A stretch of DNA of 64,000 nt. It comes from Lysobacterales bacterium. GTDB taxonomy: Bacteria; Pseudomonadota; Gammaproteobacteria; Xanthomonadales; SZUA-5. The position numbers and the translations under genes were made by a program. The DNA lies in NCBI GenBank assembly GCA_022844165.1, contig JALHMH010000007.1, forward strand, positions 1-64,000. The letters are read 5' to 3'. The notes below the pieces were generated by a model. That model had not been told where the DNA came from. It ran no database searches and was given only the letters and a program-made list of their open reading frames with translations. Of the stretch, positions 5,838 through 37,909 are shown piece after piece (within the stretch, counting starts at the first letter, position 1; every line of letters starts with the position of its first letter).

Positions 5838-8660
5838 CTATTCCGACGTCGCCACGGATGCCCGCTCGTTGAACAGCGCCCGCTGCTTGCGCAACCATGC
5901 ACCGTTGCTACCCAGGCGATCGAGTGCCTGATCCCAACTCGCTAATGCAGCGCGGCGCGCTTCGCCGCTGATCGCCAGGCTTGCAGCCGCCAGCGCCGAC
6001 ATCGCCTGCGTTTCCACGTCGGCCTCCGGCAAGGCATCGTGGATATCCCGTAACAGACGACGCGCTGCGTCCGCATCCGTGGGAGATCCGCGAAGCGCCA
6101 GCGCCGCGGCGAGTTGCGCGCTCATCGCCACCAGTATCGGATCACCCTCCGGCAACAAACTGCGGCCTTCGGCATCGGCATCCAACATCTGATCGATGGC
6201 CGCATCGAGGCGGCCGGCATTGCGCGCGTATGTGCCGAGCGCAAACCGCCCGAGCACGGCGCTCACCTGACCTGCCGCACCGAGTTTGGTGTAGCCATCG
6301 ATGGCACTTTGCTGCAATCGAACCGCCTCATCGAAACGACCCGCATCGGCGTGCACGCGGGCCAAAGAACTGAGGTGTTCCCAGGTCAATTCACTTTGCG
6401 CCCCTTGCGTTTTCAGCGCGAAATCGTGCGCTTTCTGCAACCACTCGGCGGCCGCGTCGGTTTGATTGCGCGCAACTGCCAGGTCGCCGAGCCGCGCGTA
6501 GGCATCGGCCAGGTCGTTGTGCTGCAGAGGCTCCAGCACAGCGAGCGATGTCTCCAGCGACGATTGCGCTGCGTCGAATTGACGCAGGCGTCGCTGCATG
6601 GCACCCACGCGCCCCAGCGCATCGGCGGTATGAAAATGCGTATCGCCCAGTTGCTTGCGGGTGATCGCGTGGACTCGCTGGTAAACTGCCAGCGCATCTT
6701 CGTATCGTCCCTCGCGGCGATAGATGTCGCCCAGGTTGGACAGCGGGAACAGCAACTGCGCGTGCTCTTCCCCGCGCGCTTTCTCGAGAATGGCCAACGA
6801 TCTCTCCAGCGAGGCGCGCGCGCCCGCGACGTCATCGGCCCGCAACTGAACGACAGCAAGATTGCTCAAACGCATCCCAAGATCAGGATCGTCGGGACCG
6901 CGACGTTTTTCAAACTTGGCAATCACCTGCTGCATCAAGGCCAGGGCTTCCTGGTATTGGGAGCGAGAAATCAGCACGCGCACCTGGCGGTTCTGCATAT
7001 CCGCGACGCGCAAGTGCTCCTCGGCGTGATGCGAGCGATAAATCGCCAACGCTTCGGCGATCAGCGGTTCGGCGGCATCGAATTTCCCTTGCTGGAAAAG
7101 TACCGAGATCTTGCTCGACAAAACGATGGCCAGCGCTTCGTCCATTGGGTTGCGCCGGCGGCGATAGTCGATGCTCTGCTCAAGCAGCGGCAGTGCTTCT
7201 GCAGCGCCACCCAGGTTTACCTGGACTTCGAGCAAGTCGCCGAGAACACTGTCCTGCAGATCCCGATCGGAGCCCAGTTCCTTTTGCGCACGTTCGATGC
7301 CGCTGGCGACCATTTGCAGAGGGGTGCGTGCTGCGGCGCCTTCGCGCGTTGTGCCTTCGGTTTCGGCGAACAGCGACGTCAGAAAGGTCTTCACCCGTTC
7401 GGCGCGCTGCGCTTGTGCCTGCGCGATTTGCGCTTGATCGCGGGCCACCTGCGCCTGCCATAGCGCTGCGCCCAGTCCGCCGATCAGCGATATCAGCGCC
7501 AGAAGGCTGGCAACCACACCGCCGCGATGGCGACGCACGAACTTGCCTATTCGGTAAGAAAGTGTGTCCGGGCGAGCGCGGATCGGGCGACCTTCGCGGT
7601 AGCGCTGCAAATCTTCGGCGAATGCCGCCGCCGAGGGATATCGACGCTCGGGTTCCAGCGCCAATGCTTTGAGCACGATGGTGTCGAGTTCGCCGTCGAT
7701 CCGTCCAGTGGTTGCTTTGCCAGCGACCTGGCTCGGGCGTTCCGTTGTATCGCTGCTGACGGCTCGAGCAACGTCGCCGGGTCGCTCGCGGCGACCGTGC
7801 GGCAGTTGCCCGGTGAGCAACTCGAACAACACCAGGCCCAGTGCATAAACATCCGTGGCGGTGCTGATCGGTTCGCCGCGAATTTGTTCCGGCGTCGCAT
7901 ACATCGGCGACATCACGCGCATGTCGGTCGCTGTCAGTTCGGTTGCGTCTCCGGGCTCAAGCAACTTGGCGATACCGAAATCCAACAGATGGGGCTTACC
8001 TGACTCATCGACGAGCACATTCGAAGGTTTGATATCGCGATGTACGATCAACTGTCGGTGCGCATAATCGACTGCGTCGGCAATGTCCTCGACCAGCTTC
8101 AATCGACTCGTCACACCGAGCGAATGCGTCTGCGCGTAAGTCACGATGTGCTCGCCACGGATCAACTCCATGGCCAGCCATGGCGTATCGCCATCGACGC
8201 CGGCATCGATCAACCGGGCGATCAACGGATGATTGAGGCGCGCCTGGATTTGCCGCTCGCGCGCAAATCGGGCGACGAAGTCCGGGCCAAGACCGCGGCG
8301 CAGCACTTTGATCGCGACTTCTTGTTCAAAGTCGCCCGAATCGCGTCGTGCGCGATACACCTCACCCATGCCGCCACGACCGAGCCGCTCGGACAACACG
8401 AACCCAGCGATTCGCTCGCCGCTCTGGTCGGGCATCGGCAAGGGCGCAAATGGCTCAGCGAGCGGATCGCCGAGCGCGTTTCCATCCAGCAGCCCTGTGC
8501 CCCCAACATCGGCGAGTAACATACGTTCAAGCTCATCGGCGATGTCTGGCTCCTCCCAGGCCAGACGCGCGACGGCCAGCGCACGCTGCTCGTCGGGCAT
8601 TTCCGACAGAACATCAAAGTGACGCAACAAACGCTGCCAACGCTCGCCAGCGTCAATCAT
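5838..8660 (-). CDS. Hanks-type Ser/Thr protein kinase with a transmembrane helix and extracytoplasmic TPR repeats
   Basis: LGRGGMGEVY, VAIK, HRDIKPSN, DFG and YATPEQ motifs; TM segment GGVVASLLALISLIGGLGAALW; repeated TPR-like helices; ATGA overlap with the ECF gene. Confidence 0.92.
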   Translation of the reverse strand: MIDAGERWQRLLRHFDVLSEMPDEQRALAVARLAWEEPDIADELERMLLADVGGTGLLDGNALGDPLAEPFAPLPMPDQSGERIAGFVLSERLGRGGMGEVYRARRDSGDFEQEVAIKVLRRGLGPDFVARFARERQIQARLNHPLIARLIDAGVDGDTPWLAMELIRGEHIVTYAQTHSLGVTSRLKLVEDIADAVDYAHRQLIVHRDIKPSNVLVDESGKPHLLDFGIAKLLEPGDATELTATDMRVMSPMYATPEQIRGEPISTATDVYALGLVLFELLTGQLPHGRRERPGDVARAVSSDTTERPSQVAGKATTGRIDGELDTIVLKALALEPERRYPSAAAFAEDLQRYREGRPIRARPDTLSYRIGKFVRRHRGGVVASLLALISLIGGLGAALWQAQVARDQAQIAQAQAQRAERVKTFLTSLFAETEGTTREGAAARTPLQMVASGIERAQKELGSDRDLQDSVLGDLLEVQVNLGGAAEALPLLEQSIDYRRRRNPMDEALAIVLSSKISVLFQQGKFDAAEPLIAEALAIYRSHHAEEHLRVADMQNRQVRVLISRSQYQEALALMQQVIAKFEKRRGPDDPDLGMRLSNLAVVQLRADDVAGARASLERSLAILEKARGEEHAQLLFPLSNLGDIYRREGRYEDALAVYQRVHAITRKQLGDTHFHTADALGRVGAMQRRLRQFDAAQSSLETSLAVLEPLQHNDLADAYARLGDLAVARNQTDAAAEWLQKAHDFALKTQGAQSELTWEHLSSLARVHADAGRFDEAVRLQQSAIDGYTKLGAAGQVSAVLGRFALGTYARNAGRLDAAIDQMLDADAEGRSLLPEGDPILVAMSAQLAAALALRGSPTDADAARRLLRDIHDALPEADVETQAMSALAAASLAISGEARRAALASWDQALDRLGSNGAWLRKQRALFNERASVATSE

Positions 8661-9229
8661 AGCCAGTGTGCCTCCCCGAGTGCTGCATGAAGCCACGCTC
8701 TGGCGCGGCGCCAATCGCGTTTGACCGTGGTTCTGGAAACAGCCGCCGCATCGGCAGCTTCGTCGAGCGTCAAGCCGCCAAAAAAACGCAGCTCGACCAG
8801 TTTGGCGAGGCGCGCGTCGAGGGTTTCAAGTTCGTTTAAAGCCTGATCGAGCGCCAACAGGCGATTGCCGTCGAGATCGGCTTGCGGTTCGTGATGCAAG
8901 CCGTCGATATCGGTCACGTCGGGATCGCTTCCGCGTTTTTGCGTTAACCGCTGGCGCGCCCGGTCGATCAGAATCTGCCGCATCGCGCGCGCAGAAACAG
9001 CATAGAAGTGATGGCGATCTTGTAAACCAAGCGACTCCGGTCGCGACAGCCGGAAATACGCTTCATGCACCAGCGACGTGGCGCCCATTGAAGCAGGCTG
9101 TTGGCGCAGTTGTTTTTGCGCGATCTGGTGAAGATCAGCATAAACGGCGGCGAACAGCTTATCCGCCGAATTGCGGTTGCCATCGCGCGCCGATCGGATC
9201 AGATCCGTCAGTTCCAAGCCGCACTCCAC
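8657..9229 (-). CDS. ECF sigma factor of the kinase-associated type (TIGR02999-like)
   Basis: ATSLVHEAYFRL, AMRQILID, LVELRFFGGLT and TVKRDWRRARAWL motifs. Confidence 0.9.
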   Translation of the reverse strand: MECGLELTDLIRSARDGNRNSADKLFAAVYADLHQIAQKQLRQQPASMGATSLVHEAYFRLSRPESLGLQDRHHFYAVSARAMRQILIDRARQRLTQKRGSDPDVTDIDGLHHEPQADLDGNRLLALDQALNELETLDARLAKLVELRFFGGLTLDEAADAAAVSRTTVKRDWRRARAWLHAALGEAHWL

Positions 9230-9355
9230 GTCAGGAGACTGGGCCCATTCTAACGAATACTGTCTGGATACTTGTTATCCGGATCGCGGAAGGGCGAGCA
9301 AGCTCCGAGGAACTTGCCCGCCGGGCATCAAAAGCACTTAACCCAAACCGTATGC

Positions 9356-9916
9356 TCAGAAGCGCACTTCACCCGTCACACCGATCATGTCGTAGTCGAA
9401 GTCCGCGCGGCCGTCGCTCACTTTATAGCGGTCATAGGAGAGGCTGACGCCGAATTGCTCGTTGAAGTCGTAACCGCCGCCAATACCGAGATAAAAGTCG
9501 TTGTTGCTTTCGTCGAGTAGAGACGAAGTCGTGCCTGTACGAATTCGTCCTTCGGCGTCCCAAAAAAACATACCAGCACGGGCACTCAAGAAAAAGCCGG
9601 CGGCTTCGTCGGTCAGCGGTAGCCGGCCGCTCACGCCGATGTACATGCCATCGGATTCGACTGAGTTGGTCAGGCCACCAATCGCGACGTCATCTTCCAG
9701 TTTTCCGAGGTCGACAAAGCCAATTTCGGCGCCGAAATTCTCCACGAAGCGCCAACCGGCGCCGATGCGGAAACCCGTGTCGTTGTCATCAATGCCCAGA
9801 TCGTCGACGCTGGCGCGGCCAACCGCGCCATCGACATACAGGCCTTGATGTGCCAGCGCCAAACCCGGCGCCGCCAGAAGGGCGGCCAATGCCAGCGAAA
9901 AGATGCTTTTGCGCAT
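9356..9916 (-). CDS. Small outer-membrane beta-barrel protein (OmpA-like transmembrane domain)
   Basis: Signal peptide, alternating beta-strand pattern (GAGWRF, GGGYDF) and terminal Phe. Confidence 0.85.
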   Translation of the reverse strand: MRKSIFSLALAALLAAPGLALAHQGLYVDGAVGRASVDDLGIDDNDTGFRIGAGWRFVENFGAEIGFVDLGKLEDDVAIGGLTNSVESDGMYIGVSGRLPLTDEAAGFFLSARAGMFFWDAEGRIRTGTTSSLLDESNNDFYLGIGGGYDFNEQFGVSLSYDRYKVSDGRADFDYDMIGVTGEVRF

Positions 9917-24466: not shown

Positions 24467-25600
24467 TCAGAAGCGCCAATTCCAGAGCGCCTCGAACTCG
24501 AAATGTGTCGAGTCGGCGGGGTCTGTGTTGCGGTAGTACGGGGAACCCAGGACATACTCGGCCCCAGCGTAACTTGCCGAGAACCTCAACTCGCCCAGCC
24601 GCAGAGCCCGGCCAACGCCAATCGACCAGTTAACGTCGCTCTGAATACCGTCGATGGCCTGCTGCAAGAGCGGCGCTGTCGGGCTGGGCTGCAGGCTGGT
24701 GCTATATCGGACGGACCAGTCCCAGGCGGAAGCCTGACCACGCAATGCCGCGGAATAAACCGTCAGGTTTTGCCAAGCGAAAGTTGGGCTATTTCCATCA
24801 CCCAGAAGCGCCAGGAACCGATTCGGCAATGCAAAACTGCTGACGCTGTTGATGTCACTATAAAATACGTGCTCGGCACCAATCACGATGGACGCTGCTG
24901 GTACAAGTTGCGCGGAAAAACCCAAAGCGGCTGTGGCTGGAATGTCCAAGTCGCCTGGCTCGGAATACAACCCCTGGTAGGATTTGTACGCATCCATGTC
25001 GATCGGCGAGCGCAACCCCAAGGTCCAGCCAAACCGATCATCGATCGGACCGCCGACCGCCAGTGCAACACCCACGCCGCTGGATCGTTCGGTCAATGGG
25101 CTCAACGGCGGCAGTATGTTTTCACCGCCCGGCAATGGTGAGAGCGTCCCACTGGCAAAGCGCTGCTCGGCAAACACAGCATCAATGCCAAGCGCGACAC
25201 CCTGCTGACTTTCGACGAACAATCCGGAGGTCAGCAGTCGCCGCTCCAACGCAGAGTCGGAGACCAAGGTGCGGCGCTCCTCAGGAATGAAGGCCGCCAG
25301 AGCGGAGGTCGACGACAGCGACGAGACGCGTAAGAAACTTGCCCACTCTTTGCCAGACAGGATAGGCGCGATGAACCATGCGTTGGCGTCCATCATGAAC
25401 GGATGAACGGCCGGCGTGGTCAACGCGGAAACGTCCACCCAATCGAAATTCGGAATCAGCTTTTCAGTGGCCAGGGGAGCCCATCGGCCGGTCAGCACTT
25501 TCGAGCGTTCTTCGCTCGTCGCTGCGGCCAAAAAAGTCGGGACGGCCAGCAAAATTGCGGCCGTCCCGATAATGATTTGCAAACGTGCTCTCGCCTGCAT
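24467..25600 (-). CDS. Outer-membrane protein, distantly FadL/OmpP1/TodX-like
   Basis: Signal peptide; IDMDAYKSYQGLYSEPGDLDIP and FAWQNLTVY resemble the FadL family; terminal WRF; start trimmed to avoid overlapping thiD. Confidence 0.6.
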   Translation of the reverse strand: MQARARLQIIIGTAAILLAVPTFLAAATSEERSKVLTGRWAPLATEKLIPNFDWVDVSALTTPAVHPFMMDANAWFIAPILSGKEWASFLRVSSLSSTSALAAFIPEERRTLVSDSALERRLLTSGLFVESQQGVALGIDAVFAEQRFASGTLSPLPGGENILPPLSPLTERSSGVGVALAVGGPIDDRFGWTLGLRSPIDMDAYKSYQGLYSEPGDLDIPATAALGFSAQLVPAASIVIGAEHVFYSDINSVSSFALPNRFLALLGDGNSPTFAWQNLTVYSAALRGQASAWDWSVRYSTSLQPSPTAPLLQQAIDGIQSDVNWSIGVGRALRLGELRFSASYAGAEYVLGSPYYRNTDPADSTHFEFEALWNWRF

Positions 25601-25717
25601 GCCCCTAAAGCCCGCTAGAAGGGAAGGAGTGTTGCTTCTAGCCGACGCCAGAATCGCAAAAAAACAACAGTGCGTCAAGTACGCAACATCAATCAGTTTT
25701 CGTTGTATTTTTGCCAC

Positions 25718-26500
25718 ATGAAAGACCTTTGTTTCGCGTTGACGATAGCAGGTTCGGATTCCGGCGGTGGTGCTGGCATTCAAGCCGACTTGCGTGCGTT
25801 TCATAGCCAGGGAGTCTTCGGACTGGCCGTGATCACCGCCCTCACCGCCCAAAATACGCGCGAAGTGGCGGCAGTTCAGCTCACGCCACCGGCGATGATT
25901 CGCGCGCAATTCGACGCGGTCGTTGCCGATTTTCCCGTAGGCGCAATGAAGATCGGCATGCTGGGTAACGCAGCGACAACGCGAGAAGTGACGGCGCTGG
26001 TTTTGACAGTGAACGTGCCGCTGGTCGTCGACCCCGTGATGATCGCCAGTTCTGGTGCGCGTTTGTTGGATGTGGATGCCGAAGTGGCGCTACGCAAGTT
26101 GATTCGCAACGCCACAATCATCACGCCGAACCTGCCTGAGGCAGCGGCGCTGCTCGGCATCGATGAATCTTCGATCGAAATCGAAAGCGCCGCACGGGCC
26201 TTGCTTGCCATGGGAGCGGCAGCGGTGCTGCTCAAGGATGGTCACGGCAGCGGCTCGACAGTGCGCGACATTTATTGCGATGCGCACGGCATCATTGCCT
26301 TTGAAGCGCCGCGGGCCGCGTTTCGCGGACATGGAACAGGCTGCTCGCTGGCATCGTTGATTACTGCGCGCCTGGCATTGGGCGAATCAACGCGCACCGC
26401 CGTGGCAAATGCGATTGGTGTGTTTCGCACCGCTATTGCGGAGGGCTATCGCGTGGGGACTGAGCAAGTACTCGTGCCGAATCCCAAGCCGCGTCGATAA
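25718..26500 (+). CDS. thiD: Hydroxymethylpyrimidine/phosphomethylpyrimidine kinase
   Basis: LTIAGSDSGGGAGIQAD, LTAQNT, DPVM, TPNLPEA and HGTGC motifs. Confidence 0.93.
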   Translation: MKDLCFALTIAGSDSGGGAGIQADLRAFHSQGVFGLAVITALTAQNTREVAAVQLTPPAMIRAQFDAVVADFPVGAMKIGMLGNAATTREVTALVLTVNVPLVVDPVMIASSGARLLDVDAEVALRKLIRNATIITPNLPEAAALLGIDESSIEIESAARALLAMGAAAVLLKDGHGSGSTVRDIYCDAHGIIAFEAPRAAFRGHGTGCSLASLITARLALGESTRTAVANAIGVFRTAIAEGYRVGTEQVLVPNPKPRR

Positions 26501-27722: not shown

Positions 27723-28901
27723 TCAACCGGCTCGCAGCGCCGTTGTGACGGGTAACCGTGCCGCGCGAATCGCCGGCATCAGACCGCCGATAAATCCAAT
27801 GAATATCGCCAGCACCATGCCGAAGCCCACCAGTGCCGGGGTGACACGGAAGTTGAAGACGAGTTGCGTAAAGCCGCTGCCAAGGGTCGAAACGGTCATG
27901 CCGTTGAAAAACACATAGGCGAGCAGCGCACCGATCAGGCCACCGACCACCGCAAGGAGCATCGCCTCGACCATGACGCTGGCAACGACAGGAAACCCAG
28001 AAAATCCGATTGCGCGCAACGTGGCGATTTCGCGCGTGCGCGCCGAGACGCTTGCGTACATCGTGTTCAATGCCGCAAAGATCGCACCGAGCGCCATGAT
28101 CACCGCCACCGCCGTGCCCAGCGCCTTGACGCCGCCGCTGGTCTGCGCCGTCTGCGCCGTAAAGTAGTCCCGCTGATTGCGCACCTCCACGTTCAAGCGC
28201 GGATCTGCGGTCAAGGCCAGCTTGAACGCATCCAGTTGGTCGGGATCGGTCAATCCGACGAGCGCCACATTGAAGGAATTGGGTCGTCCCCAGGCGGTTT
28301 GCGCGGTCGCTGTGTCGGTAAAAATCTCACTTTCGTTGGCGTCGCCACTGACAAAGATACCCACGACCGTCCAATCGGCGCCACGCAAGCGAATGGTGTT
28401 ACCGACCGCCAGACCTTCAAACTGCTGGGATGCGCCCTTGCCAACCAGCAACTCCTGCAGGCCCGGCGTAAACTTCCTGCCTTCGACAATCTTCAGCTTC
28501 GGTCGCAGTTCGAGACCAAACTCGCCGATGCCACGGAGCGTGACGTTGGCGCCGAGTTTCTCGCCCTTTTTGGGCAATTCGGCAATGACAATCAGCTCGC
28601 CGGAAACCAGTGGTTTACCCGACGACGATTGGCGCACGCCAGGTGTTGTCGAGGCCAACTCCAGTGCCTGACGCGAGATTGTGCTGTTAAGTTCGGCTTG
28701 CGAACCGCCGCGCATGACCATCGCGTTGTTTTCCTCGCCCGAAGCGACCAGCGTCGAATCGATGCCGTTGGCCATCGCGAACAGCGCCGTAAACACACCG
28801 ACGACGCCAGCGATACCAATCACGATGACCAGCGAGGCGCCAAGTCGCTCGGGAATGCTGCGCAGATTCAGCAGTACGATTTCGAAGATTTGTTTGATCA
28901 T
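27723..28901 (-). CDS. ABC transporter permease (MacB/FtsX family)
   Basis: TM1, periplasmic domain and three further TMs; RTREIATLRAIGF. Confidence 0.9.
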   Translation of the reverse strand: MIKQIFEIVLLNLRSIPERLGASLVIVIGIAGVVGVFTALFAMANGIDSTLVASGEENNAMVMRGGSQAELNSTISRQALELASTTPGVRQSSSGKPLVSGELIVIAELPKKGEKLGANVTLRGIGEFGLELRPKLKIVEGRKFTPGLQELLVGKGASQQFEGLAVGNTIRLRGADWTVVGIFVSGDANESEIFTDTATAQTAWGRPNSFNVALVGLTDPDQLDAFKLALTADPRLNVEVRNQRDYFTAQTAQTSGGVKALGTAVAVIMALGAIFAALNTMYASVSARTREIATLRAIGFSGFPVVASVMVEAMLLAVVGGLIGALLAYVFFNGMTVSTLGSGFTQLVFNFRVTPALVGFGMVLAIFIGFIGGLMPAIRAARLPVTTALRAG

Positions 28902-28910
28902 CGTAAACTC

Positions 28911-30077
28911 CTATCGGCCCGCCAGTGCATCAACGATCTTGACCCGACCAGCCTTGAGCGCAGGCGGCAAACCAACCGCCAACGCCAATGCTGTCATCGC
29001 CAGAAAGGCCTGTAGCCAGACCGCTCCGCTGGCGCGGACGGTGCCAAAGAACTGAGGCGCCTGGGCCGCCAGCCCGGTGATCGCGAAACTCGCCAATAAC
29101 ATGCCGACCAGGGCCCCCAAAGCGCACAGAATGAGCGACTCGATCAGCACCAGCGCCGTGACCGTACCATTGTTGAAGCCGAGCGTTTTCAACACCGCCA
29201 GTTCTGGTATGCGCTCTCGAACGGCCTGCGCCATCGTGTTGCCGGTCAGAATCAGGATGGTGAAGAACACTGCGACAAGAATCAGCGAGACGATTAAGCC
29301 GATATCGCCTATTTGTGCGAAAAAGCCCTTGTTGAAGTCCTTCTCGCTTTGCGTCTTGGTCTCGTTCGGTGAGTTCAGGAATTTGGCGTCGATCGCCTGG
29401 GCAACAGCGTTCGCCTGATCAGGGTCATCAAGTACAACGTTGAAGACGCCAGCAAAGCCGCTTCCGAACTGTGCGGCTTCGGTAAAGTAGGCGTGATTGA
29501 TGTAAACAAGGTTGGTCTGCGCCTGCCATGATTCATCGATACCATCGAAGATTCCAACAATGTCGAACTCCCATGCCATCGAGCCGTCTTTCTTGGGGAA
29601 GATGTTCGATTTGATTGGGATCTTTTGTCCCACCTTCCAACCCTTGCCCTCTGCATTGGCGACGTTTCGGCCGACAATGGCGCCCGTTCGAGTGGTTTTG
29701 AATGCCTCCCATTCGGCGTCCGTCAGTTTCCACTCCGGATACGTGGTGCGCAGGCGCTCGGGATCATTGGCAAAGACAAAGAGCTGCTCGTTCTCGCCCC
29801 ACACGCCGCCAAACCACTGGTCGTGACTGACAGCCTTGACGCCAGGCATTGCCTCGATCTCTGGCAGTAACCGTATTGGCAACGAATCGGTAAATGACAC
29901 CCGCGATTGCACCACCAAACGCGACGCGCCGACGAAATCCGCGCCCGCAGTGAAAAAGACACTCAGCGCCTGTAACAATCCGAATAGCAAAAATGCACAA
30001 ATCAGCGACAACAACGTCAGCCACGCGCGCGTTTTTTTCCGCCAGAGGCTCGACCAGATCAAGTGGAAGTACTTCAT
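28911..30077 (-). CDS. ABC transporter permease (MacB/FtsX family)
   Basis: [14 protein letters not shown]; same topology as the neighbouring permease. Confidence 0.9.
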
Positions 30078-30089
30078 TGCTGTACTCCT

Positions 30090-30776
30090 TTATGCGGCTT
30101 GCGCCTGCAGCGTGCCTTTGTCCAGATGCACCGTGCGACTGGCATATTCGGCCGCCTTGGGATCGTGCGTCACCATGACGATCGTCTTGCCGTATTCGCG
30201 ATTCAAACGTTGCAGCAAGGTCAAAATTTCATCCGCGGTCTTGCGATCAAGATCGCCAGTGGGCTCATCGCAAACCAGAAGTTCCGGGTCGCTGACCAGC
30301 GCGCGTGCGATTGCCACTCGCTGTTCCTGACCGCCCGACAGCTCCTTGGGCTTGTGCCGAGCGCGATCCTTCAGCCCGACGATCTCCAGCGCAATGTTGG
30401 CACGCTTCAATCGTTCGCTGCCGCTCATATTGGTGAGCAGCAACGGCAGCTCAACATTGCGCTCGGCTGTGAGCACCGGCAACAAATTATAGAACTGGAA
30501 AACGAAGCCGACATTGCTGGCACGCCATTTCGCCAGCTGACCCGAGTTCATACCGTCAATGCGTTGGCCACCAATGCTGATCTCCCCGCCGGTGGGCTGA
30601 TCGAGGCCACCGATCAGGTTGAGCAGCGTCGTCTTGCCCGAACCCGAAGGGCCCATCAGCGCCACGAAATCACCCTTCGGAATGTCGAGGGACAGGTTGT
30701 GCAGTACTTCGACTTTCTGCTTGCCCCGGGTGTAGTTCTTGATCACATTCTTGACGCGAATCAGGACATCGCTCAT
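30090..30776 (-). CDS. ABC transporter ATP-binding protein (LolD/MacB type)
   Basis: [21 protein letters not shown] and VTHD motifs. Confidence 0.95.
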
Positions 30777-30898
30777 GGCTGTACCCTTCTACTTTCGATT
30801 GGCGGTGGCTCGGTTTGGCTGTTGCTTCCTCCCCCGATGTCCGGGGAAGGTTGAAACGTTCTGCGCAACGATCGTGGGCTTACTGACTTGGCCGCCGT

Positions 30899-32122
30899 TT
30901 ATCGGGCAGCCACGGCGTCTCCATCCGCCAGCGCTTCAGGAGGCGAGACGATCACGGTGTCGCCGGGCGCAAGCCCGGCGGTAATGTTGCGAAAGTCGGC
31001 GATTTTTGCGCCCGCGGTCACCGGGTTGCTGCGTGCCTTACCCGCATCGACGGTAAACACCATCGATTGCCCGGCGCGCTCAACCACAGCGGCATTCGGC
31101 ACCAGTACCCCATTCAGTTGCGGCCGTGGTGCGGCGTTTTCCGCCTGCGGCTCCAAAAAGCGCACACGAACCCCCATGTCGGGGACGATGCGCGCATCCT
31201 TCTCGTTCAAGGCAACGCGCACGCGGACCGTGGCTTTGGTGCGATCTGCGGCGGGAATGACGGCGATCACGCGCCCCCGAATGCGCCATTCCGGGTAAGC
31301 GTTCAAGGTCGCCTCGACGGGCATATCGCTTTGCACGCGGCCAATAAAAGACTCGTTGACATCCACCTCCACCTCCAACGAATCCATATCGACAATGGTA
31401 CCGATGCCAGTTCGCGTGAAACCGCCACCGGCTGAAATCGGCGAGATCATTTCGCCGGGCTGCGCCGCTTTGGCGACCACGATGCCGGCAAACGGTGCGC
31501 GAATTGTGGTGTCGTCGAGCGCCACCTGGCTCAGAGCCAGCGCTCGTTGCGACACATCGATACTGCGCCGCTGACTGGTCAGGCGCGCGATCAGCGCAGC
31601 CACTTGCGATTGCGCGCTGTCGAGCGCGGCTGCGCTGGCCAGTTTGCGCCTGACGAGTTCCTGCTGGCGGCCAAGTTCAGCGCGCGCAAGCCGCAGGTTG
31701 ACCTCCGTCTCCGTCAGCTGCGATCGAGAATTTTCCAACTGTGCCTGACCCAGCGCGTAGTCAGCCCGCTGTACGGTGTCGTCCAGCGTGGCCATGATCT
31801 GCCCGGCTTCGACCCGCATGCCTTCTTCGATCAGCACCTCGCGCACTTTGCCGGTGATCTTCGCAGATACCGTTGCCTGTCGGCGCGCCACCACATAGCC
31901 CGAGGCATCCAACACAGAACCCGACGACCCGGACTGGGCCGCAGACGACGCCAACGCGGTTTCGACGATCGTCGGGCCGGTGCCGCGACTAAACCACCAG
32001 CCTGCCGTACCGATTCCCACAACCACCGCGGCGGCCACTATCCACCGAACTGGACTCGCTTGTGTGGTTTGCCGTTCATCCCGCGCGATTTTGAGTTGCC
32101 CTAACAGATCGCCCTGACTCAT
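30899..32122 (-). CDS. Periplasmic adaptor (membrane fusion) protein
   Basis: TM anchor, lipoyl-like halves (VLIEEG, IRAPFAG) and coiled coil. Confidence 0.9.
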   Translation of the reverse strand: MSQGDLLGQLKIARDERQTTQASPVRWIVAAAVVVGIGTAGWWFSRGTGPTIVETALASSAAQSGSSGSVLDASGYVVARRQATVSAKITGKVREVLIEEGMRVEAGQIMATLDDTVQRADYALGQAQLENSRSQLTETEVNLRLARAELGRQQELVRRKLASAAALDSAQSQVAALIARLTSQRRSIDVSQRALALSQVALDDTTIRAPFAGIVVAKAAQPGEMISPISAGGGFTRTGIGTIVDMDSLEVEVDVNESFIGRVQSDMPVEATLNAYPEWRIRGRVIAVIPAADRTKATVRVRVALNEKDARIVPDMGVRVRFLEPQAENAAPRPQLNGVLVPNAAVVERAGQSMVFTVDAGKARSNPVTAGAKIADFRNITAGLAPGDTVIVSPPEALADGDAVAAR

Positions 32123-32510
32123 CGCTTCGTTAACCCTGACTTGGATGGTGCAATGCTCGCACGCAGCGCGTTGCGCTGCCGTGTAACAAGACTCGCTCAA
32201 CACTTTGTGCTCTTGTAGTGACTAACGTCATTCGAGCGCATGCGTTGTCGCCGGGCTCAGCCAGACTGTCGGGCGAAACGCCGATCAGCAACGGAACCCC
32301 GGCTGCACCCAAAACCGAGTGAAATGCCAAGGCCCGTGCGTAAAGTGAACGGTCGAAACGACGCCACTGGCGGCTCTCCGCGAGACGACTTGTCCGTCTC
32401 CACAATGAGCAGGCCCTGCTCATCTCGCTGAGCCGCTCGGGCGCATATTGACAAACTACCGCCCCATTGTGCTCTGTCGCGGCCGAACAGACTTCCGCTT
32501 GCCTTTTCGA

Positions 32511-32558: not shown

Positions 32559-32651
32559 GGAGAGATGTCCGAGCGGTTGAAGGAGCACGCCTGGAAAGTG
32601 TGTAAACGGCTAAACCCCGTTTCGAGGGTTCGAATCCCTCTCTCTCCGCCA
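32559..32651 (+). tRNA. tRNA-Ser (anticodon GGA)
   Basis: GGAGAGA/TCTCTCC acceptor stem plus GCCA; anticodon loop CT-GGA-AA; long variable arm; GGTTCGAATCC T-arm. Confidence 0.97.
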
Positions 32652-32914: not shown

Positions 32915-33310
32915 TCAGCGCCAGGCGCGAACCGCAGTAATAGCCAACGCTATTGTGAAGATGAGCAACGCCGCGATGGGCGATGTCAAAGGCCTCGAAA
33001 GTGCAGGAAAGCACTTTCTCAACATCGTGCTATCGCCATCACTACGGACTCTGATCGACAAAGCCCGTGGCGGCTCGACGCAACTCCGTCGCGCCGAGGC
33101 TGCGATGTAATTCCTGCTCGGCGGTGCGAAGAGCTGAGTCGCGGAATTGACGTTGCTGTCGATCTCAAAGCGCTGCCCGTTCGCTTCCTGCTGAATCCAC
33201 CGCGCATCTTCCTTCAGATAGATGTGACCGGCACGGCCATACCTTTGTGCTTCGACACTGCTCGCACCGGCAAGAAGGATGACTGTGACGGCTAATGGGA
33301 TTGAGGACAA
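32915..33310 (-). CDS. Small hypothetical protein with a signal peptide and C-terminal TM (possibly a remnant)
   Basis: MSSIPLAVTVILLAGASSVEA leader; tail PLTSPIAALLIFTIALAITAVRAWR; no recognised domain. Confidence 0.3.
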   Translation of the reverse strand: MSSIPLAVTVILLAGASSVEAQRYGRAGHIYLKEDARWIQQEANGQRFEIDSNVNSATQLFAPPSRNYIAASARRSCVEPPRALSIRVRSDGDSTMLRKCFPALSRPLTSPIAALLIFTIALAITAVRAWR

Positions 33311-33411: not shown

Positions 33412-34335
33412 TTAGCGCTGTGGTGCCGTTGGCTTTGCTGGTTTAACTGGTTTGGCCGGTTTGCCCGGCTTGGGCTGAACCGGTTCGGACGTCGCCGGCG
33501 GCGACGCGCTGGTCGCAACGGTAGGTGCGGTCGCTGCGGGGGGCAATGGGATGAAACCCATCTCGGCCATCGCTCCACGCACGATGTCGAGTCGCGCGGT
33601 GCCGAAATCGGCGACCGCCTTGGCGTCGATGTTCATGGCGTAGTACCACACTTTGCCGGGTCGTTCGACGAAGCCGATTAACCATCCCAGGTACTTGGTA
33701 CCAGTCGCGTCATGGGCGCAGGTGCCGGGCATGCCGTAAATGGTGTAGTCCGGCGTGCGTTCCTGGACCATGGCCTCTTTAACGAGCTTGGTTGCGTTGG
33801 GCGAAAAGCCCAGGCGGCCTTCGCGAAATCCGCGCACAAAGTCGACTTGTTCAAGACCGGTGATCCGCAATGAACTGGTGTTCCAGAATTTGTCGAGCCC
33901 GCCGCTGATATCGGCATTTCCGTACTTGATGCGCTTCAGGTGTTGCGCCAATTTGACGTTACCGATCCGTGTCGACAACTCGCCGGCATACCAGGGTACC
34001 GAATCTCTGAGCGCCGATTCGAAGGTGTGGTCGCGCCGCCATACTTCTGGCCAGGTCGACGCCGCCGGGTGTTTGTTTGGATCGAAAACGATTTTCGTCG
34101 TGTTGTCTTTGATCGCGCCTGTACCGAGCGCAATCGCCGTATGCGGCCACAAATAAGTCTCGCAGGGCGTCAGTCGCTCCGCCAGTCGCGGCGTATTGAC
34201 ACGAAACGACAGCTTGGTTTGTGCATCATAAATTTCCAAAGCGCCGTAACGACCCTTGAACTGGCCGGAGAGCATCGCCGCGTGTGCGGCAGAACTGGAA
34301 AACAGTGCGGCGAGAAACAAGGCAGTGCGAAACAT
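33412..34335 (-). CDS. Class D beta-lactamase/penicillin-binding-fold homologue, catalytically degenerate
   Basis: OXA-like scaffold (IALGTG, WRRDH, YGNADISGG, FW, EQVDF, GWLIGFVE, YAMNID), but STFK is ETYL and KTG is MPG. Confidence 0.85.
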   Translation of the reverse strand: MFRTALFLAALFSSSAAHAAMLSGQFKGRYGALEIYDAQTKLSFRVNTPRLAERLTPCETYLWPHTAIALGTGAIKDNTTKIVFDPNKHPAASTWPEVWRRDHTFESALRDSVPWYAGELSTRIGNVKLAQHLKRIKYGNADISGGLDKFWNTSSLRITGLEQVDFVRGFREGRLGFSPNATKLVKEAMVQERTPDYTIYGMPGTCAHDATGTKYLGWLIGFVERPGKVWYYAMNIDAKAVADFGTARLDIVRGAMAEMGFIPLPPAATAPTVATSASPPATSEPVQPKPGKPAKPVKPAKPTAPQR

Positions 34336-34503
34336 GGGATCAGTCGGGCCTGTCGATTCGGAGGGGCGCTGGCGAGTCGTTGAATGACGCGCAACGCATT
34401 CGCGGATTCTAACCCCGTGCAGTTTGAATCACCTACTGCGCGGGCAGATGGCGACGTTGAACCTAACCCACTATTCTCTGCGCGCCCAGGCATCAGCCCG
34501 ACC

Positions 34504-36474
34504 ATGCTCAATCCGCAACAACTCGCTGCCGTCGAATATCTTGCCGGACCCTTGCTCGTGCTTGCTGGCGCTGGCTCAGGAAAAACGCGGGTCATCACCG
34601 AAAAAATCGCGCGGTTGTTGAAGACCGGCTTGTACTTGCCGAACGAGATCGCCGCCATCACGTTCACCAACAAAGCGGCACGTGAAATGCAAGCGCGCAT
34701 TGGCAAAGCGGCAGGCGCACAAACGGTCGAAGGGCTCACGATCAGCACGTTTCACGCATTGGGTTTGCGGCTCCTGGAGCGCGAGTGCACGGCCGTCGGT
34801 TTGCGGCGCGGCTTCTCGATACTCGGCGAGGACGATGCGCGTACGCTGATCAAGGACCTGGCGCCGGCCGGCACCGGCAATGAGCAACTGGACGCCATGC
34901 GCGCACTGATTGGTCGCGCCAAGAATGCCGGGCTTGATGCCACGCAGGCGTTGGCGGCGGCGGGCTCGCCGCGGGAGCGCGCGGCGGCGGAGCTGTATGC
35001 GTTGTACCAGCAACGACTTCTGGCATTCAATGCGGTCGACTTCGACGATCTGATCGCATTGCCAGTGCGCCTGTTGTCCAATGACGATGAGCGCCGCCAA
35101 CGATGGCAGCAGCGCTGGCGTTACCTGCTGGTCGACGAATACCAGGACACCAACGATGCCCAGTATCGACTCTTGAAGCTGCTGGTGGGCGAGCGCGGCG
35201 CGTTCACGGCGGTCGGCGACGACGACCAGTCGATCTACGCCTGGCGGGGGGCGAACCCTGAGAACCTGGCGAACATCGGCAAAGATTTTCCGGCACTGAA
35301 GGTCGTCAAACTCGAACAGAACTACCGATGTGCGCAACGCATCCTGCGGCTCGCCAATCGACTGATTGCGAACAATCCGCATGTGCACGAGAAAAAACTG
35401 TGGAGCGCGCTGCCCGAAGGCGATCCGATTCGCATCGTCGCGCGATCCAGCGATAGCGATGAAGCCGAGTTCGTCGCGGCGGAAGTCAACCATCGGAAGC
35501 TGGTCGAGCGCGGTTCGCCGTCCGACTTCGCCGTGTTGTTCCGCGGGAATCATCAAGCGCGTGCTCTGGAACTGGCGTTGCGCGCGCTGAAAATCCCTTA
35601 CCACTTGTCGGGTGCGACGTCGTTCTTCGATCGCCAAGAGATCAAAGATGTGATGGCCTATCTGCGACTGCTGGCAAATCCCGACGATGACGCCGCATTT
35701 GTGCGCGCCGCGACGACGCCCAGACGCGACATCGGCACCACGTCGCTCGAAAAACTCGCCGCTGCCGCACGTCACGGCGCACATTCGTTGAGCGCCGCCG
35801 CGGCTAACAGCGCCGCGCTCGCAACGCTCGCACCACGCGCGGCGCGTGCCCTGGCCAGTTTTCACCAGCATTTGCTCGGATGGCGCAGCGCCGCCCAAAC
35901 GCTCAAGCCGCGCGCATTGATCGAGAAGATCATCGCCGAGACCCAGCTCAAACAACATTGGCGCCAGGAAGCGAAGGCACCCGATGCAGCGCTGCGGCGC
36001 GAAGCTCAGGTCGATGCCTTTCTCGAGTGGGTGGGCGAGCGCCGCGAAACTCAGCTCAGTGCATTACTGACGCAGCTCATGCTCGACAGTCAGGACAGCG
36101 ACCCGGGCAATCGTGTGCGCTTAATGACTCTGCACAGCGCCAAGGGCCTTGAGTTCCGGCACGTGTTCCTCGTCGGCTGTGAGGATGGATTGTTGCCGCA
36201 CGTTTCGTCGCTGGACGAGGGCCGCGAAGATGAAGAGCGGCGTTTGTTCTATGTCGGCATTACCCGCGCCAAAGAAACGCTGACGCTAAGCTGGTGCCGC
36301 TCGCGCAGCCGCTACGGACGCGAAGAAGCGTGCACACCGTCGCGATTCCTCAAGGAACTCCCTGAAGACGACGTGCGCCACTCAGGACAGAACCCCGGGA
36401 ACCAGAGCGCCGAAGACAAGCAACGCGCTGCGCGCCCGCATCTGGATGCCATCAAGGCATTGCTCGGCGCTTGA
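34504..36474 (+). CDS. rep: ATP-dependent DNA helicase Rep (UvrD/Rep family)
   Basis: AGAGSGKT, DEYQD, VGDDDQSIYAWRGA, LEQNYR and TLHSAKGLEF motifs; Rep-like C-terminus HLDAIKALL. Confidence 0.88.
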   Translation: MLNPQQLAAVEYLAGPLLVLAGAGSGKTRVITEKIARLLKTGLYLPNEIAAITFTNKAAREMQARIGKAAGAQTVEGLTISTFHALGLRLLERECTAVGLRRGFSILGEDDARTLIKDLAPAGTGNEQLDAMRALIGRAKNAGLDATQALAAAGSPRERAAAELYALYQQRLLAFNAVDFDDLIALPVRLLSNDDERRQRWQQRWRYLLVDEYQDTNDAQYRLLKLLVGERGAFTAVGDDDQSIYAWRGANPENLANIGKDFPALKVVKLEQNYRCAQRILRLANRLIANNPHVHEKKLWSALPEGDPIRIVARSSDSDEAEFVAAEVNHRKLVERGSPSDFAVLFRGNHQARALELALRALKIPYHLSGATSFFDRQEIKDVMAYLRLLANPDDDAAFVRAATTPRRDIGTTSLEKLAAAARHGAHSLSAAAANSAALATLAPRAARALASFHQHLLGWRSAAQTLKPRALIEKIIAETQLKQHWRQEAKAPDAALRREAQVDAFLEWVGERRETQLSALLTQLMLDSQDSDPGNRVRLMTLHSAKGLEFRHVFLVGCEDGLLPHVSSLDEGREDEERRLFYVGITRAKETLTLSWCRSRSRYGREEACTPSRFLKELPEDDVRHSGQNPGNQSAEDKQRAARPHLDAIKALLGA

Positions 36475-36664: not shown

Positions 36665-37909
36665 CTAACCGCCCGTTGTGATTGCTGGCTCTGAGGTTGG
36701 AGCAGCGGCTTCCGTCGCAACCGGCGGTGCCGCGTTGGGATCCGGCAGGCCGAGCGGCAGAAACACGCGTGTCACCTCGACCATTTCCGGTTCCGCATCG
36801 GCTGCGTCTTCCGCTGTTGCCGCCTCTGCGACAGCTGCGTCGGCTGGCGCCGCATCGGCCGGCGGCGCGCCATCGGGCGCTGCCGACGCATCGGCAGGTG
36901 CGGCCTCCGTGGCGAGAACTGCGGGGCGATCCGGTAGGAACTCTTCGATCGGCTTGGCGCGTGGATCGAAAGCCATGCCGAAGATGGTCGCGTACGCCTG
37001 AAGTTTTTCAAAGGTGACATTGCTGCGGCGACGCTCGCCGACATGTTCGGCGACCAACATGCTGCCACCTGGCGTCTGCACCGCCTGAATATCGTCGCGC
37101 ATAGGGACATCGTTGCGATCGACAGGAACGGTGACATCGAATGCCAGACGATAACGTTCCTTGAGAGTGACCTGAACCTGCGCCGGGCCAGTAATGTTGA
37201 TGTTGCTGCGCGTCGCGAACGCTGATAGCGCTTTCATCGTGTCCGCCACGCCAGCGTTCAGATCGGGGAACTCGGTGGCGCTATACACCTCAACAAGACC
37301 GCTCAACTTCAAAGCCGGTTGCGACAAAATCTCTTGCTGTGCGATTTGAATATCGCTGTAGTCGCGAGCGTAGGCACTGGATTCAACCAGGGCCTTAAAG
37401 CGCATCAACCCGTACTGGAAATCCGCCCCAACCGAAGAGTCCAAATAGCGTCCCTTGATCCTTTCGATCGGATTGGCGCCTAGTTCCACGTCGTACGCCC
37501 AGGTCACCTTGACGCCAAGATCGGAGGGCTCGACTTGGTAAGAGATCGAGCCGGTGCGCCCACCGGTCACCACCTGCGTCATTTTGATCGAACTGGTGGG
37601 CGTGCTTTCGATGATCTCGAGATGACCGGCGCCAATATCCGGGTTGCCCGACCATTCCATTCGTGCGCCTTGGCCGCGATCCGGACCCGCGAACGTGAAA
37701 CTGGCCGCAGGGTCCTTCTTCGCCCAGGGCGACCACTCGTTGAAGCGCTTGAAGCTGTTCAACACATCGAAAATGTGGCTCGACGGCCGCTCGATGATGA
37801 TCGACCTTTCGACATGACCATGGCCGCCGCCCGGCAAAAACAAGCCGATCAACAGCAGAACGACGATGGTCAAGATGACCGCGAGCACAAACTCAATGAG
37901 TGAACGCAT
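36665..37909 (-). CDS. Membrane-anchored SRPBCC/START-domain protein with a GyrI-like C-terminal domain
   Basis: TM helix, HVERSIII, FNEWSPW, GARMEW and DFQYGLMRFK; Ala/Pro/Asp-rich insert near the C-terminus. Confidence 0.75.
   Translation of the reverse strand: MRSLIEFVLAVILTIVVLLLIGLFLPGGGHGHVERSIIIERPSSHIFDVLNSFKRFNEWSPWAKKDPAASFTFAGPDRGQGARMEWSGNPDIGAGHLEIIESTPTSSIKMTQVVTGGRTGSISYQVEPSDLGVKVTWAYDVELGANPIERIKGRYLDSSVGADFQYGLMRFKALVESSAYARDYSDIQIAQQEILSQPALKLSGLVEVYSATEFPDLNAGVADTMKALSAFATRSNINITGPAQVQVTLKERYRLAFDVTVPVDRNDVPMRDDIQAVQTPGGSMLVAEHVGERRRSNVTFEKLQAYATIFGMAFDPRAKPIEEFLPDRPAVLATEAAPADASAAPDGAPPADAAPADAAVAEAATAEDAADAEPEMVEVTRVFLPLGLPDPNAAPPVATEAAAPTSEPAITTGG

Follow-up and report, generated by a model that had tools for sequence, protein, structure and literature searches.

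A class D beta-lactamase-fold pseudoenzyme from an uncultured Lysobacterales lineage that has lost the carbamylatable lysine and remains under purifying selection

The closest described systems to the gene examined here are the active class D beta-lactamases, exemplified by BAT-2 (6w5g/6w5o), BSU-2/YbxI (6w5e/5e2f), BPU-1 (5ctm) and OXA-48 (3hbr), and the sensor domain of BlaR1/MecR1, in which the class D fold likewise serves otherwise than for resistance by hydrolysis. BlaR1 signals through acylation of its serine and is fused to a membrane M56 protease in a protein of about 585-600 amino acids. A survey of 24,916 OXA-domain proteins also described a few clusters with impaired motifs that are very unlikely to be beta-lactamases, among them cluster 12 without the catalytic serine, cluster 14 with SxxH, SxH/Q and AS/TG, and several clusters of one or two members; for none of them does it give a function, a selection analysis, a cysteine pair or a signature (Lupo et al. 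2022, PMC9045261). The genomes surveyed were those of RefSeq; the proteins described below come mainly from metagenome-assembled genomes and metagenomes, and the two sets may or may not overlap. Here we analyze a stretch of 64,000 nucleotides from a Lysobacterales bacterium (assembly GCA_022844165.1, contig JALHMH010000007.1, positions 1 to 64,000; hereafter the window), which carries at 33412..34335 on the minus strand a gene for a class D beta-lactamase-fold pseudoenzyme that we call pseudo-OXA. Its product has in common with the active class D enzymes the fold (about 28-36% identity), a putatively exported single domain, the SxV and YGN motifs, the omega-loop Trp, W99 and a late Arg. Unlike them, it has no serine nucleophile, no carbamylatable lysine and no KTG lysine, it misses the curated class D score, and it carries a clade-specific N-terminal signature and a Pro-rich tail of its own. 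Unlike BlaR1, it has E59 and L62 in place of the Ser and Lys and no membrane M56 domain, its 307 residues containing PF00905 only.

The reading frame is uninterrupted over 307 codons and a stop, and PF00905 (E=1.6e-17) is the sole Pfam domain. The top NCBIfam model, bla_class_D_main, scored 149.5 bits, below its curated cut-off of 250, and blaR1_generic scored 143.3 bits over its sensor part against a cut-off of 400; among the 25 matches listed, class D and BlaR1 models included, no NCBIfam model reached its cut-off. A phmmer search of the PDB returned 136 distinct class D or BlaR-type sequences, with BAT-2 (6w5g) the best at E=4.6e-39. An AlphaFold2 model made from 40 relatives (predicted local distance difference test, pLDDT, 81.6; predicted template modelling score 0.74), in which low confidence is limited to the signal peptide, residues 131-160 and the tail, was matched by Foldseek to BAT-2, BPU-1, YbxI and OXA-48 at template modelling (TM) scores of 0.84-0.89 normalised to the target, which identifies the class D fold. 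Residues 1-19, MFRTALFLAALFSSSAAHA (34279..34335, minus), were recognized by eye as a putative Sec signal peptide with cleavage expected between AHA and the following A, and in the alignment of homologues the hydrophobic segment followed by AxA-AML keeps its position; the product would thus be a Sec-exported, soluble periplasmic protein. The C-terminal residues 263-307 (33415..33549, minus) form a disordered, Pro/Ala-rich tail ending in K-P-x repeats, KPGKPAKPVKPAKP, where Tandem Repeats Finder reports a weak 9-nt period. The pLDDT falls below 50 over residues 275-290, and the relatives also carry a tail, whose sequence is not conserved. The GC fraction at the gene is 0.57-0.60 and the base composition is unremarkable.

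The catalytic motifs were assigned from a residue-by-residue alignment with BAT-2 and from an alignment of 194 proteins. The former P-x-S-x-x-K box reads P57-C58-E59-T60-Y61-L62 (34150..34167, minus) and aligns with PQSTFK of BAT-2, which puts E59 under the nucleophilic serine and L62 under the carbamylatable lysine, both residues of SxxK being lost. The former K-T-G box, together with the second cysteine, reads M202-P203-G204-T205-C206 (33718..33732, minus) and aligns with KTGT. Retained in the same alignments and on the same strand are the SxV box, part of DSVPWY, as S112-V113-P114 (33994..34002), in which S112 is replaced by A or G in the two nearest relatives, the YGN motif Y138-G139-N140 (33916..33924), the Trp of the omega-loop FW, W151 (33883..33885), and the late R248 (33592..33594). 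The protein contains two cysteines, residues 58 and 206. Because the Ser (Glu59), the Lys (Leu62) and the KTG Lys (Met202) are all gone, the protein is predicted to be incapable both of beta-lactamase activity and of acyl sensing in the manner of BlaR. A first-pass annotation of the window had already proposed an uninterrupted frame on an OXA fold, with ETYL at 34150-34161 and MPG at 33724-33732 as the altered motifs, the SxV Ser, YGN, omega-loop Trp and late Arg retained, only two Cys, a Pro/Ala linker and a KPAKP-repeat tail, and every one of these assignments agrees with the alignments and structural matches given here.

The loss of the lysine extends well beyond the window. A word-indexed search of 5.8 billion proteins gave 46 matches, of which 40, the window protein included, form a tight group at 56-76% identity, here the main clade; 1.84 billion representatives were searched exhaustively with HMMER, the best 150 of 2646 matches being examined, and a third search used a profile built from the more distant Lys-less sequences. 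The SxxK lysine is present in 0/39 close homologues of the window protein. Across the 40 main-clade members, position 62 is L in 35, M in three, F in one and Q in one, never K, and the nucleophile position 59 is still S in 30, with A in seven, E in two and Q in one. Ser is found at position 112 in 38/40, the KTG Lys at position 202 in 37 (M in two, I in one), and the KTG Thr at position 203 has become Y in 36, A in two, P in one and F in one, while YGN 138-140, Trp 151 and Arg 248 are unchanged in 40/40. The Ser-to-Glu and Lys-to-Met changes are restricted to a trio consisting of the window protein, P0002 (the protein of locus L001) and P0003, within which E59 is Q in the closest relative and MPG is MAG or IAG in the other two.

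Taken together, the Lys-less family comprises about 85 protein clusters in several grades of motif loss. The P0047 type (12 clusters and one fragment) has PCST[FA]Y with SVP, YGN, W, KTGSC and R kept, so that the Lys alone is lost; the main-clade grade (37 clusters) has PC[S/A]T[Y/F][L/M/Q] and K[Y/F]GSC; and the window's trio (3 clusters) has PC[E/Q]TY[L/F], [S/A/G]VP and [M/I][P/A]G[T/S]C. In the ACG type (7 clusters) the box is degenerate and SxxK, SxV, YGN and KTG are unrecognisable, and the same holds for the FCQFND/FCEFHH type (24 clusters and P0045), which has no Pfam match. In the ACG and FCQFND types YGN, the Arg and mostly the Trp are gone, and the fold, the Cys pair and the signature remain. 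The extreme is illustrated by P0213 of the FCQFND type, which has lost SxxK, SxV, YGN, Trp, KTG and Arg altogether. Its model (pLDDT 86.9) still matches structures of the OXA-48 family, at query-normalised TM scores of 0.72-0.77 and 11-17% identity. The named clade members so far are uncultured Lysobacterales/Xanthomonadales. The search for fused or longer relatives of pseudo-OXA found none, which is weak evidence, and the ESM Atlas yielded only clusters named beta-lactamase, class D beta-lactamase or penicillin-binding transpeptidase domain protein.

The relationships of these proteins were examined with trees of the trimmed domain, for which the 194 proteins were reduced to 176 rows after 18 fragments and split matches were dropped. 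In the FastTree analysis of the 176 rows, support was 99 for the trio, 97 for the 40 main-clade rows and 100 for the 49 Lys-less rows. An IQ-TREE analysis (LG+C20 model with posterior mean site frequencies) of 62 selected rows, in which the Lys-less side is represented by 14 main-clade proteins, eight degenerate ones and P0047, separated 39 intact from 23 Lys-less proteins by a branch of length 0.59 with support 100/100; support was 100/99 for the trio, 99/92 for the main clade and 100/100 for the degenerate group, the window protein was placed on the Lys-less side, and a quick IQ-TREE run gave the intact/Lys-less split again. The simplest reading of these trees, whose root is not fixed, would be that the Lys was lost once in the clade. 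The clade appears to be a lineage that lost the Lys and in which the other catalytic residues then decayed at lineage-specific rates. Outside it, five class D representatives also lack the Ser, the Lys or both, with residues 59/62/202 reading A/N/V in P0113, S/E/K in P0126, A/D/K in P0165, S/Q/L in P0190 and A/T/K in P0192, so catalytic-residue loss recurs independently in class D.

The gene is under strong purifying selection, the trio's lineage included. For the mature core of the window gene and its counterparts at loci L001-L007 (8 sequences, 239 ungapped codons; the partial L008 and the intact OXA of L009 were left out), a GY+F3X4 codon model in IQ-TREE gave a global omega (the ratio of nonsynonymous to synonymous substitution rates, dN/dS) of 0.074. 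Pairwise Nei-Gojobori (NG86) estimates were omega 0.07 for the window against L001 (dN 0.125, dS 1.76, saturated), 0.008 for L004 against L005 (dN 0.0018, dS 0.23), 0.19 for L003 against L004, 0.085 for L002 against L007, and 0.11-0.31 for the window against L002-L007, where dS is saturated at 1.1-2.4. The view of the first-pass annotation that this is an intact, selected gene without acylation machinery is therefore upheld, dN/dS being well below 1; close homologues that keep STFK and KTG beside a relaxed window copy were not what was found, since the Lys occurs in 0/39 of them and omega is 0.074.

The constraint itself has shifted. Of 246 aligned positions, 79 (32%) differ among the three proteins of the trio, and the ex-catalytic positions 59, 62, 112, 202 and 203 do so in 5/5 cases (hypergeometric P=0.003). 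Because all five vary within the trio, these positions are drifting; they form no conserved new catalytic set and belong to the least constrained of the protein. This observation is mirrored on the 176-row tree, where the changes falling among the 49 Lys-less rows, relative to those over all rows, number 6/9 at the nucleophile, 8/14 at the Lys, 6/8 at the SxV Ser and 7/9 at the KTG Lys, as against 0/40 for the Cys at Ser-1 and 0/48 for the Cys at Lys+4. In the clade, constraint is reversed: the catalytic positions change and the Cys pair is frozen.

Cysteines at both Ser-1 and Lys+4, C58 and C206 in the window protein, are found in 51/51 Lys-less sequences, and all third-search members with both regions present have both. 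The pair also occurs in catalytically intact proteins, where among 132 representatives both Cys are present in 20, the first only in 30, the second only in one and neither in 81. Intact enzymes with SxxK, KTG and both Cys include P0048, P0069, P0070, P0072, P0075, P0076, P0078 and P0091; when P0070 was compared with the PDB, Ser-1 was Gln in all of the four best alignments, and none of them had a Cys at Lys+4. The SxxK helix and the KTG strand are arranged alike in classes A and D. In the class A carbapenemases KPC, SME, NmcA and GES, a Cys69-Cys238 disulfide is needed for stability, and its removal destabilises or inactivates NmcA and SME-1; its spacing is the one seen here, Cys69/Ser70 and Lys234/Cys238 corresponding to Ser-1 and Lys+4 (PMC5405625). 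The class A proteins belong to another Ambler class and are active enzymes, whereas in the clade the putative bond lies beside dead motifs. Since the spacing equals that of Cys69-Cys238, a structural disulfide is likely, and by this analogy Cys58-Cys206 most likely ties the former KTG strand to the N-terminal end of what was the active-site helix. Of the two roles first proposed for the cysteines, the disulfide is therefore favoured, and a new Cys nucleophile is disfavoured because both Cys are also found in 20/132 intact enzymes. The occurrence of the pair in intact class D proteins points to an active-site-adjacent disulfide there as well, parallel to the class A carbapenemase marker.

The strongest clade-specific block was found near the N-terminus, at residues 29-51, RYGALEIYDAQTKLSFRVNTPRL (34183..34251, minus), which form a beta1-beta2 hairpin and a short helix. 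Comparison of 37 main-clade, nine degenerate and 132 intact sequences defined the signature RYG..E..D...KLSFRVN.P.L (R29, Y30, G31, E34, D37, K41-L-S-F-R-V-N47, P49, L51), which is conserved in the main clade, P0047 and the ACG and FCQFND types. Residues 29-47 of the window protein match R-[YW]-G-x2-E-x2-D-x4-LSFRVN, and the G, E, D and LSFRVN together with the two Cys are invariant even over P0047 and the degenerate types. In the intact enzymes, position 34 is Val in 97/132 and positions 41-46 are variable. The strands of the signature lie at residues 31-37 and 42-46 in the AlphaFold2 model, and by analogy with solved class D structures we take the hairpin to sit at the sheet edge, far from the cleft. 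Because nothing but the fold, the Cys pair and this block survives in the fully degenerate sub-family, we infer that the clade-wide function depends on the signature block and not on the old cleft.

With moderate confidence, we consider pseudo-OXA to be a non-catalytic periplasmic protein, braced by a disulfide, with a binding or regulatory role, that is, a pseudoenzyme on the class D fold. In this proposal, selection would hold the scaffold, the Cys pair beside the two dead motifs and the N-terminal hairpin signature, and the working surface would include the hairpin signature rather than the ex-catalytic residues. Several points weigh against it. The C58-C206 bond is itself inferred, as is where the hairpin lies with respect to the pocket; the signature residues may reflect structural rewiring, such as Glu34 replacing Val, and not an interaction surface; dS is saturated in most NG86 comparisons that involve the window; and the taxonomic restriction of the clade is known from few named records. 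In addition, the non-catalytic pocket residues W99, V113, Y138-G-N140, W151, G204 and R248 are invariant in the main clade and the trio, so the old pocket may still be the working site in the window's branch.

This last point leads to a serious rival, possible though in our judgement unlikely, in which the cleft would bind a carboxylate ligand (a beta-lactam, a muropeptide or a D-Ala-D-Ala stem) non-covalently and the protein would act as a sponge, sensor or carrier. The cleft residues W99, YGN 138-140, W151, G204 and R248 are invariant in the trio and in 40/40 of the main clade, R248 being even more conserved in the main clade (40/40) than in the intact enzymes (104/132), and the main clade still has Ser59 in 30/40, Ser112 in 38/40 and Lys202 in 37/40. 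The use of the class D fold as a sensor by BlaR1, as described in the OXA-domain survey, offers a precedent (PMC9045261). Against this, the polar cleft residues drift in the window's trio, and the ACG/FCQFND sub-families have lost YGN, the Arg and mostly the Trp without giving up the fold, the Cys pair or the signature. A function common to the clade cannot need the cleft, because these types dropped the cleft motifs yet persist.

A bolder and rather improbable proposal would make the LSFRVN clade a new periplasmic signalling or adaptor family built on a dead beta-lactamase, in which the disulfide-braced scaffold offers the invariant KLSFRVN edge hairpin to a partner, mostly the sensor domain of an adjacent OmpR-type kinase, and the residual cleft may read a cell-wall fragment or a beta-lactam. 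Were this true, its members would be soluble counterparts of BlaR1 whose signalling needs no acylation. Degenerate cell-wall enzyme folds are known as regulators, for example the LytM-domain activators of amidases, which have an unrelated fold and are alike in concept alone.

More doubtful still is the narrower idea that the dead OXA domain is an accessory of a two-component system, docking on or signalling to the periplasmic domain of the adjacent OmpR-family histidine kinase. In 5/8 family loci (L002 6543-8508, L004 10009-11971, L005 10060-12013, L006 9536-11757 and L008 798-2757) the gene is followed, in the same orientation, by those of an orthologous OmpR-family response regulator and a HisKA kinase, with the response regulators 87-99% and the kinases 68-86% identical between loci. 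The linkage holds despite differing upstream genes, namely AceK and T2SS-F in L002 and a RimK block in L004 and L006, RimK following the kinase in L008. The gene-to-gene gaps of about 200-1200 bp and the extra ORFs in L004 and L005, however, mean that there is no tight operon, neither the window nor L001 has the pair close to the gene, and the synteny is explicable by shared ancestry because all loci are from related Lysobacterales. The pair has no specific NCBIfam name, with no NCBIfam equivalog at cut-off, and the periplasmic segment of the kinase (about 100 residues) has no Pfam match. A complex prediction for L002 pseudo-OXA residues 22-266 with kinase residues 42-146 scored 0.00 against a mark of 0.32, the partner's own fold being uncertain in that prediction, and speaks neither for nor against a contact. 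We treat the synteny as a lead, not as evidence; if it did reflect function, the window copy would be a relocated paralogue or orthologue acting in trans.

Beside non-covalent ligand or peptidoglycan binding, the first-pass annotation had also suggested a rewritten active site with different chemistry. In such a reading Glu59 or a Cys would have turned catalytic for a different reaction, a proposal that takes its appeal from the acidic residue at the nucleophile position and the two Cys flanking the old motifs. It fares very poorly. The E-x-x-L and MPG motifs on which it drew are not conserved: the closest relative has Gln in place of Glu59, other clade members have Ser, Ala or Gly there, MPG gives way to MAG/IAG within the trio, and the main clade has mostly Ser and K[Y/F]G. 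The variation at all five ex-catalytic positions in the trio speaks against it, both Cys occur in intact enzymes with the spacing of a known structural disulfide, and no new invariant polar residue was found in the cleft among the 37 main-clade, nine degenerate and 132 intact sequences compared. A decaying pseudogene or a sequencing error in an ordinary OXA gene, which the absence of three catalytic residues might bring to mind, is hardly credible and was rejected on the evidence of purifying selection, the trio's lineage included, given an intact 307-codon frame, the same Lys loss in 39 independent relatives, omega values of 0.074 overall and 0.07 against the nearest orthologue (L001), and a Rep, SRPBCC and DUF2064 flank conserved in L001.

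Dead class D homologues have thus been glimpsed before, and what is new here is how large the clade is, how strong the purifying selection on it is, the stepwise loss of its motifs and the reversed constraint. In the literature searched, neither a class D pseudoenzyme family, nor the LSFRVN signature, nor an active-site-adjacent Cys pair in class D was found described. The family offers a natural decay series, from loss of the Lys, to Lys and KTG Thr, to Ser and KTG Lys, to every motif, with the fold kept throughout, and under such strong purifying selection it lends itself well to the question of which new uses a beta-lactamase scaffold is put to. There is also a practical consequence: the sources label clade proteins "class D beta-lactamase" or "OXA-10", so resistome surveys of soil and water metagenomes would count about 85 dead clusters as resistance genes.

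The surroundings of the gene were examined across the window. Directly downstream of pseudo-OXA lies an ORF of 131 amino acids (32915-33310, minus) with hydrophobic segments at both ends. It matches neither Pfam nor NCBIfam, L001-L009 lack a counterpart of it, and it may or may not be a real gene. A tRNA-Ser (anticodon GGA; 32559-32651, plus) stands between this pair and an operon at 27723-32203 (minus) for a tripartite exporter of MacAB-like type, which consists of an HlyD-type adaptor, an ABC ATPase and a split pair of FtsX-type permeases, one of them carrying the MacB periplasmic core domain. On the other side, a Rep/UvrD helicase gene (34384-36474, plus) diverges from pseudo-OXA. The mechanical start of its ORF (34384-34503, plus) leaves only 48 bp to the start of pseudo-OXA on the other strand; 664/696 residues are covered in the match to L001 and the Pfam helicase domain begins at residue 42, and the true start probably lies some 30-40 codons further in. 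Beyond it is an SRPBCC (Polyketide_cyc2) protein with a long Pro/Ala/Asp-rich C-terminal tail (36665-37909, minus), a second exported-looking neighbour with a low-complexity Pro/Ala tail, whose counterpart in L001, 79% identical, likewise adjoins Rep. No locus other than L001 shares this side (Rep, SRPBCC and DUF2064), and the gene context yields no functional lead. Over the segment from the tRNA-Ser to the Rep gene the window and L001 differ: in L001 a BLUF blue-light sensor (8977-9459, plus) lies downstream of pseudo-OXA, followed by two POT-family peptide transporters, none of which is there in the window.

A scan for promoters and terminators gave no promoter-like and two terminator-like sites, against 1.9 expected by chance, and was uninformative. 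The rest of the 64-kb window holds ordinary chromosomal genes, none of them beta-lactam-specific. Among these, a 480-amino-acid ORF without a Pfam match at E<=0.001 lies between the S-adenosylhomocysteine hydrolase and fructose bisphosphatase genes (24467-25909, minus). A Ser/Thr protein kinase with TPR repeats (5838-9229, minus) is encoded directly downstream of, and slightly overlapping, the gene of an extracytoplasmic function (ECF) sigma factor, and an OmpA-like barrel and a GGDEF protein adjoin these two genes.

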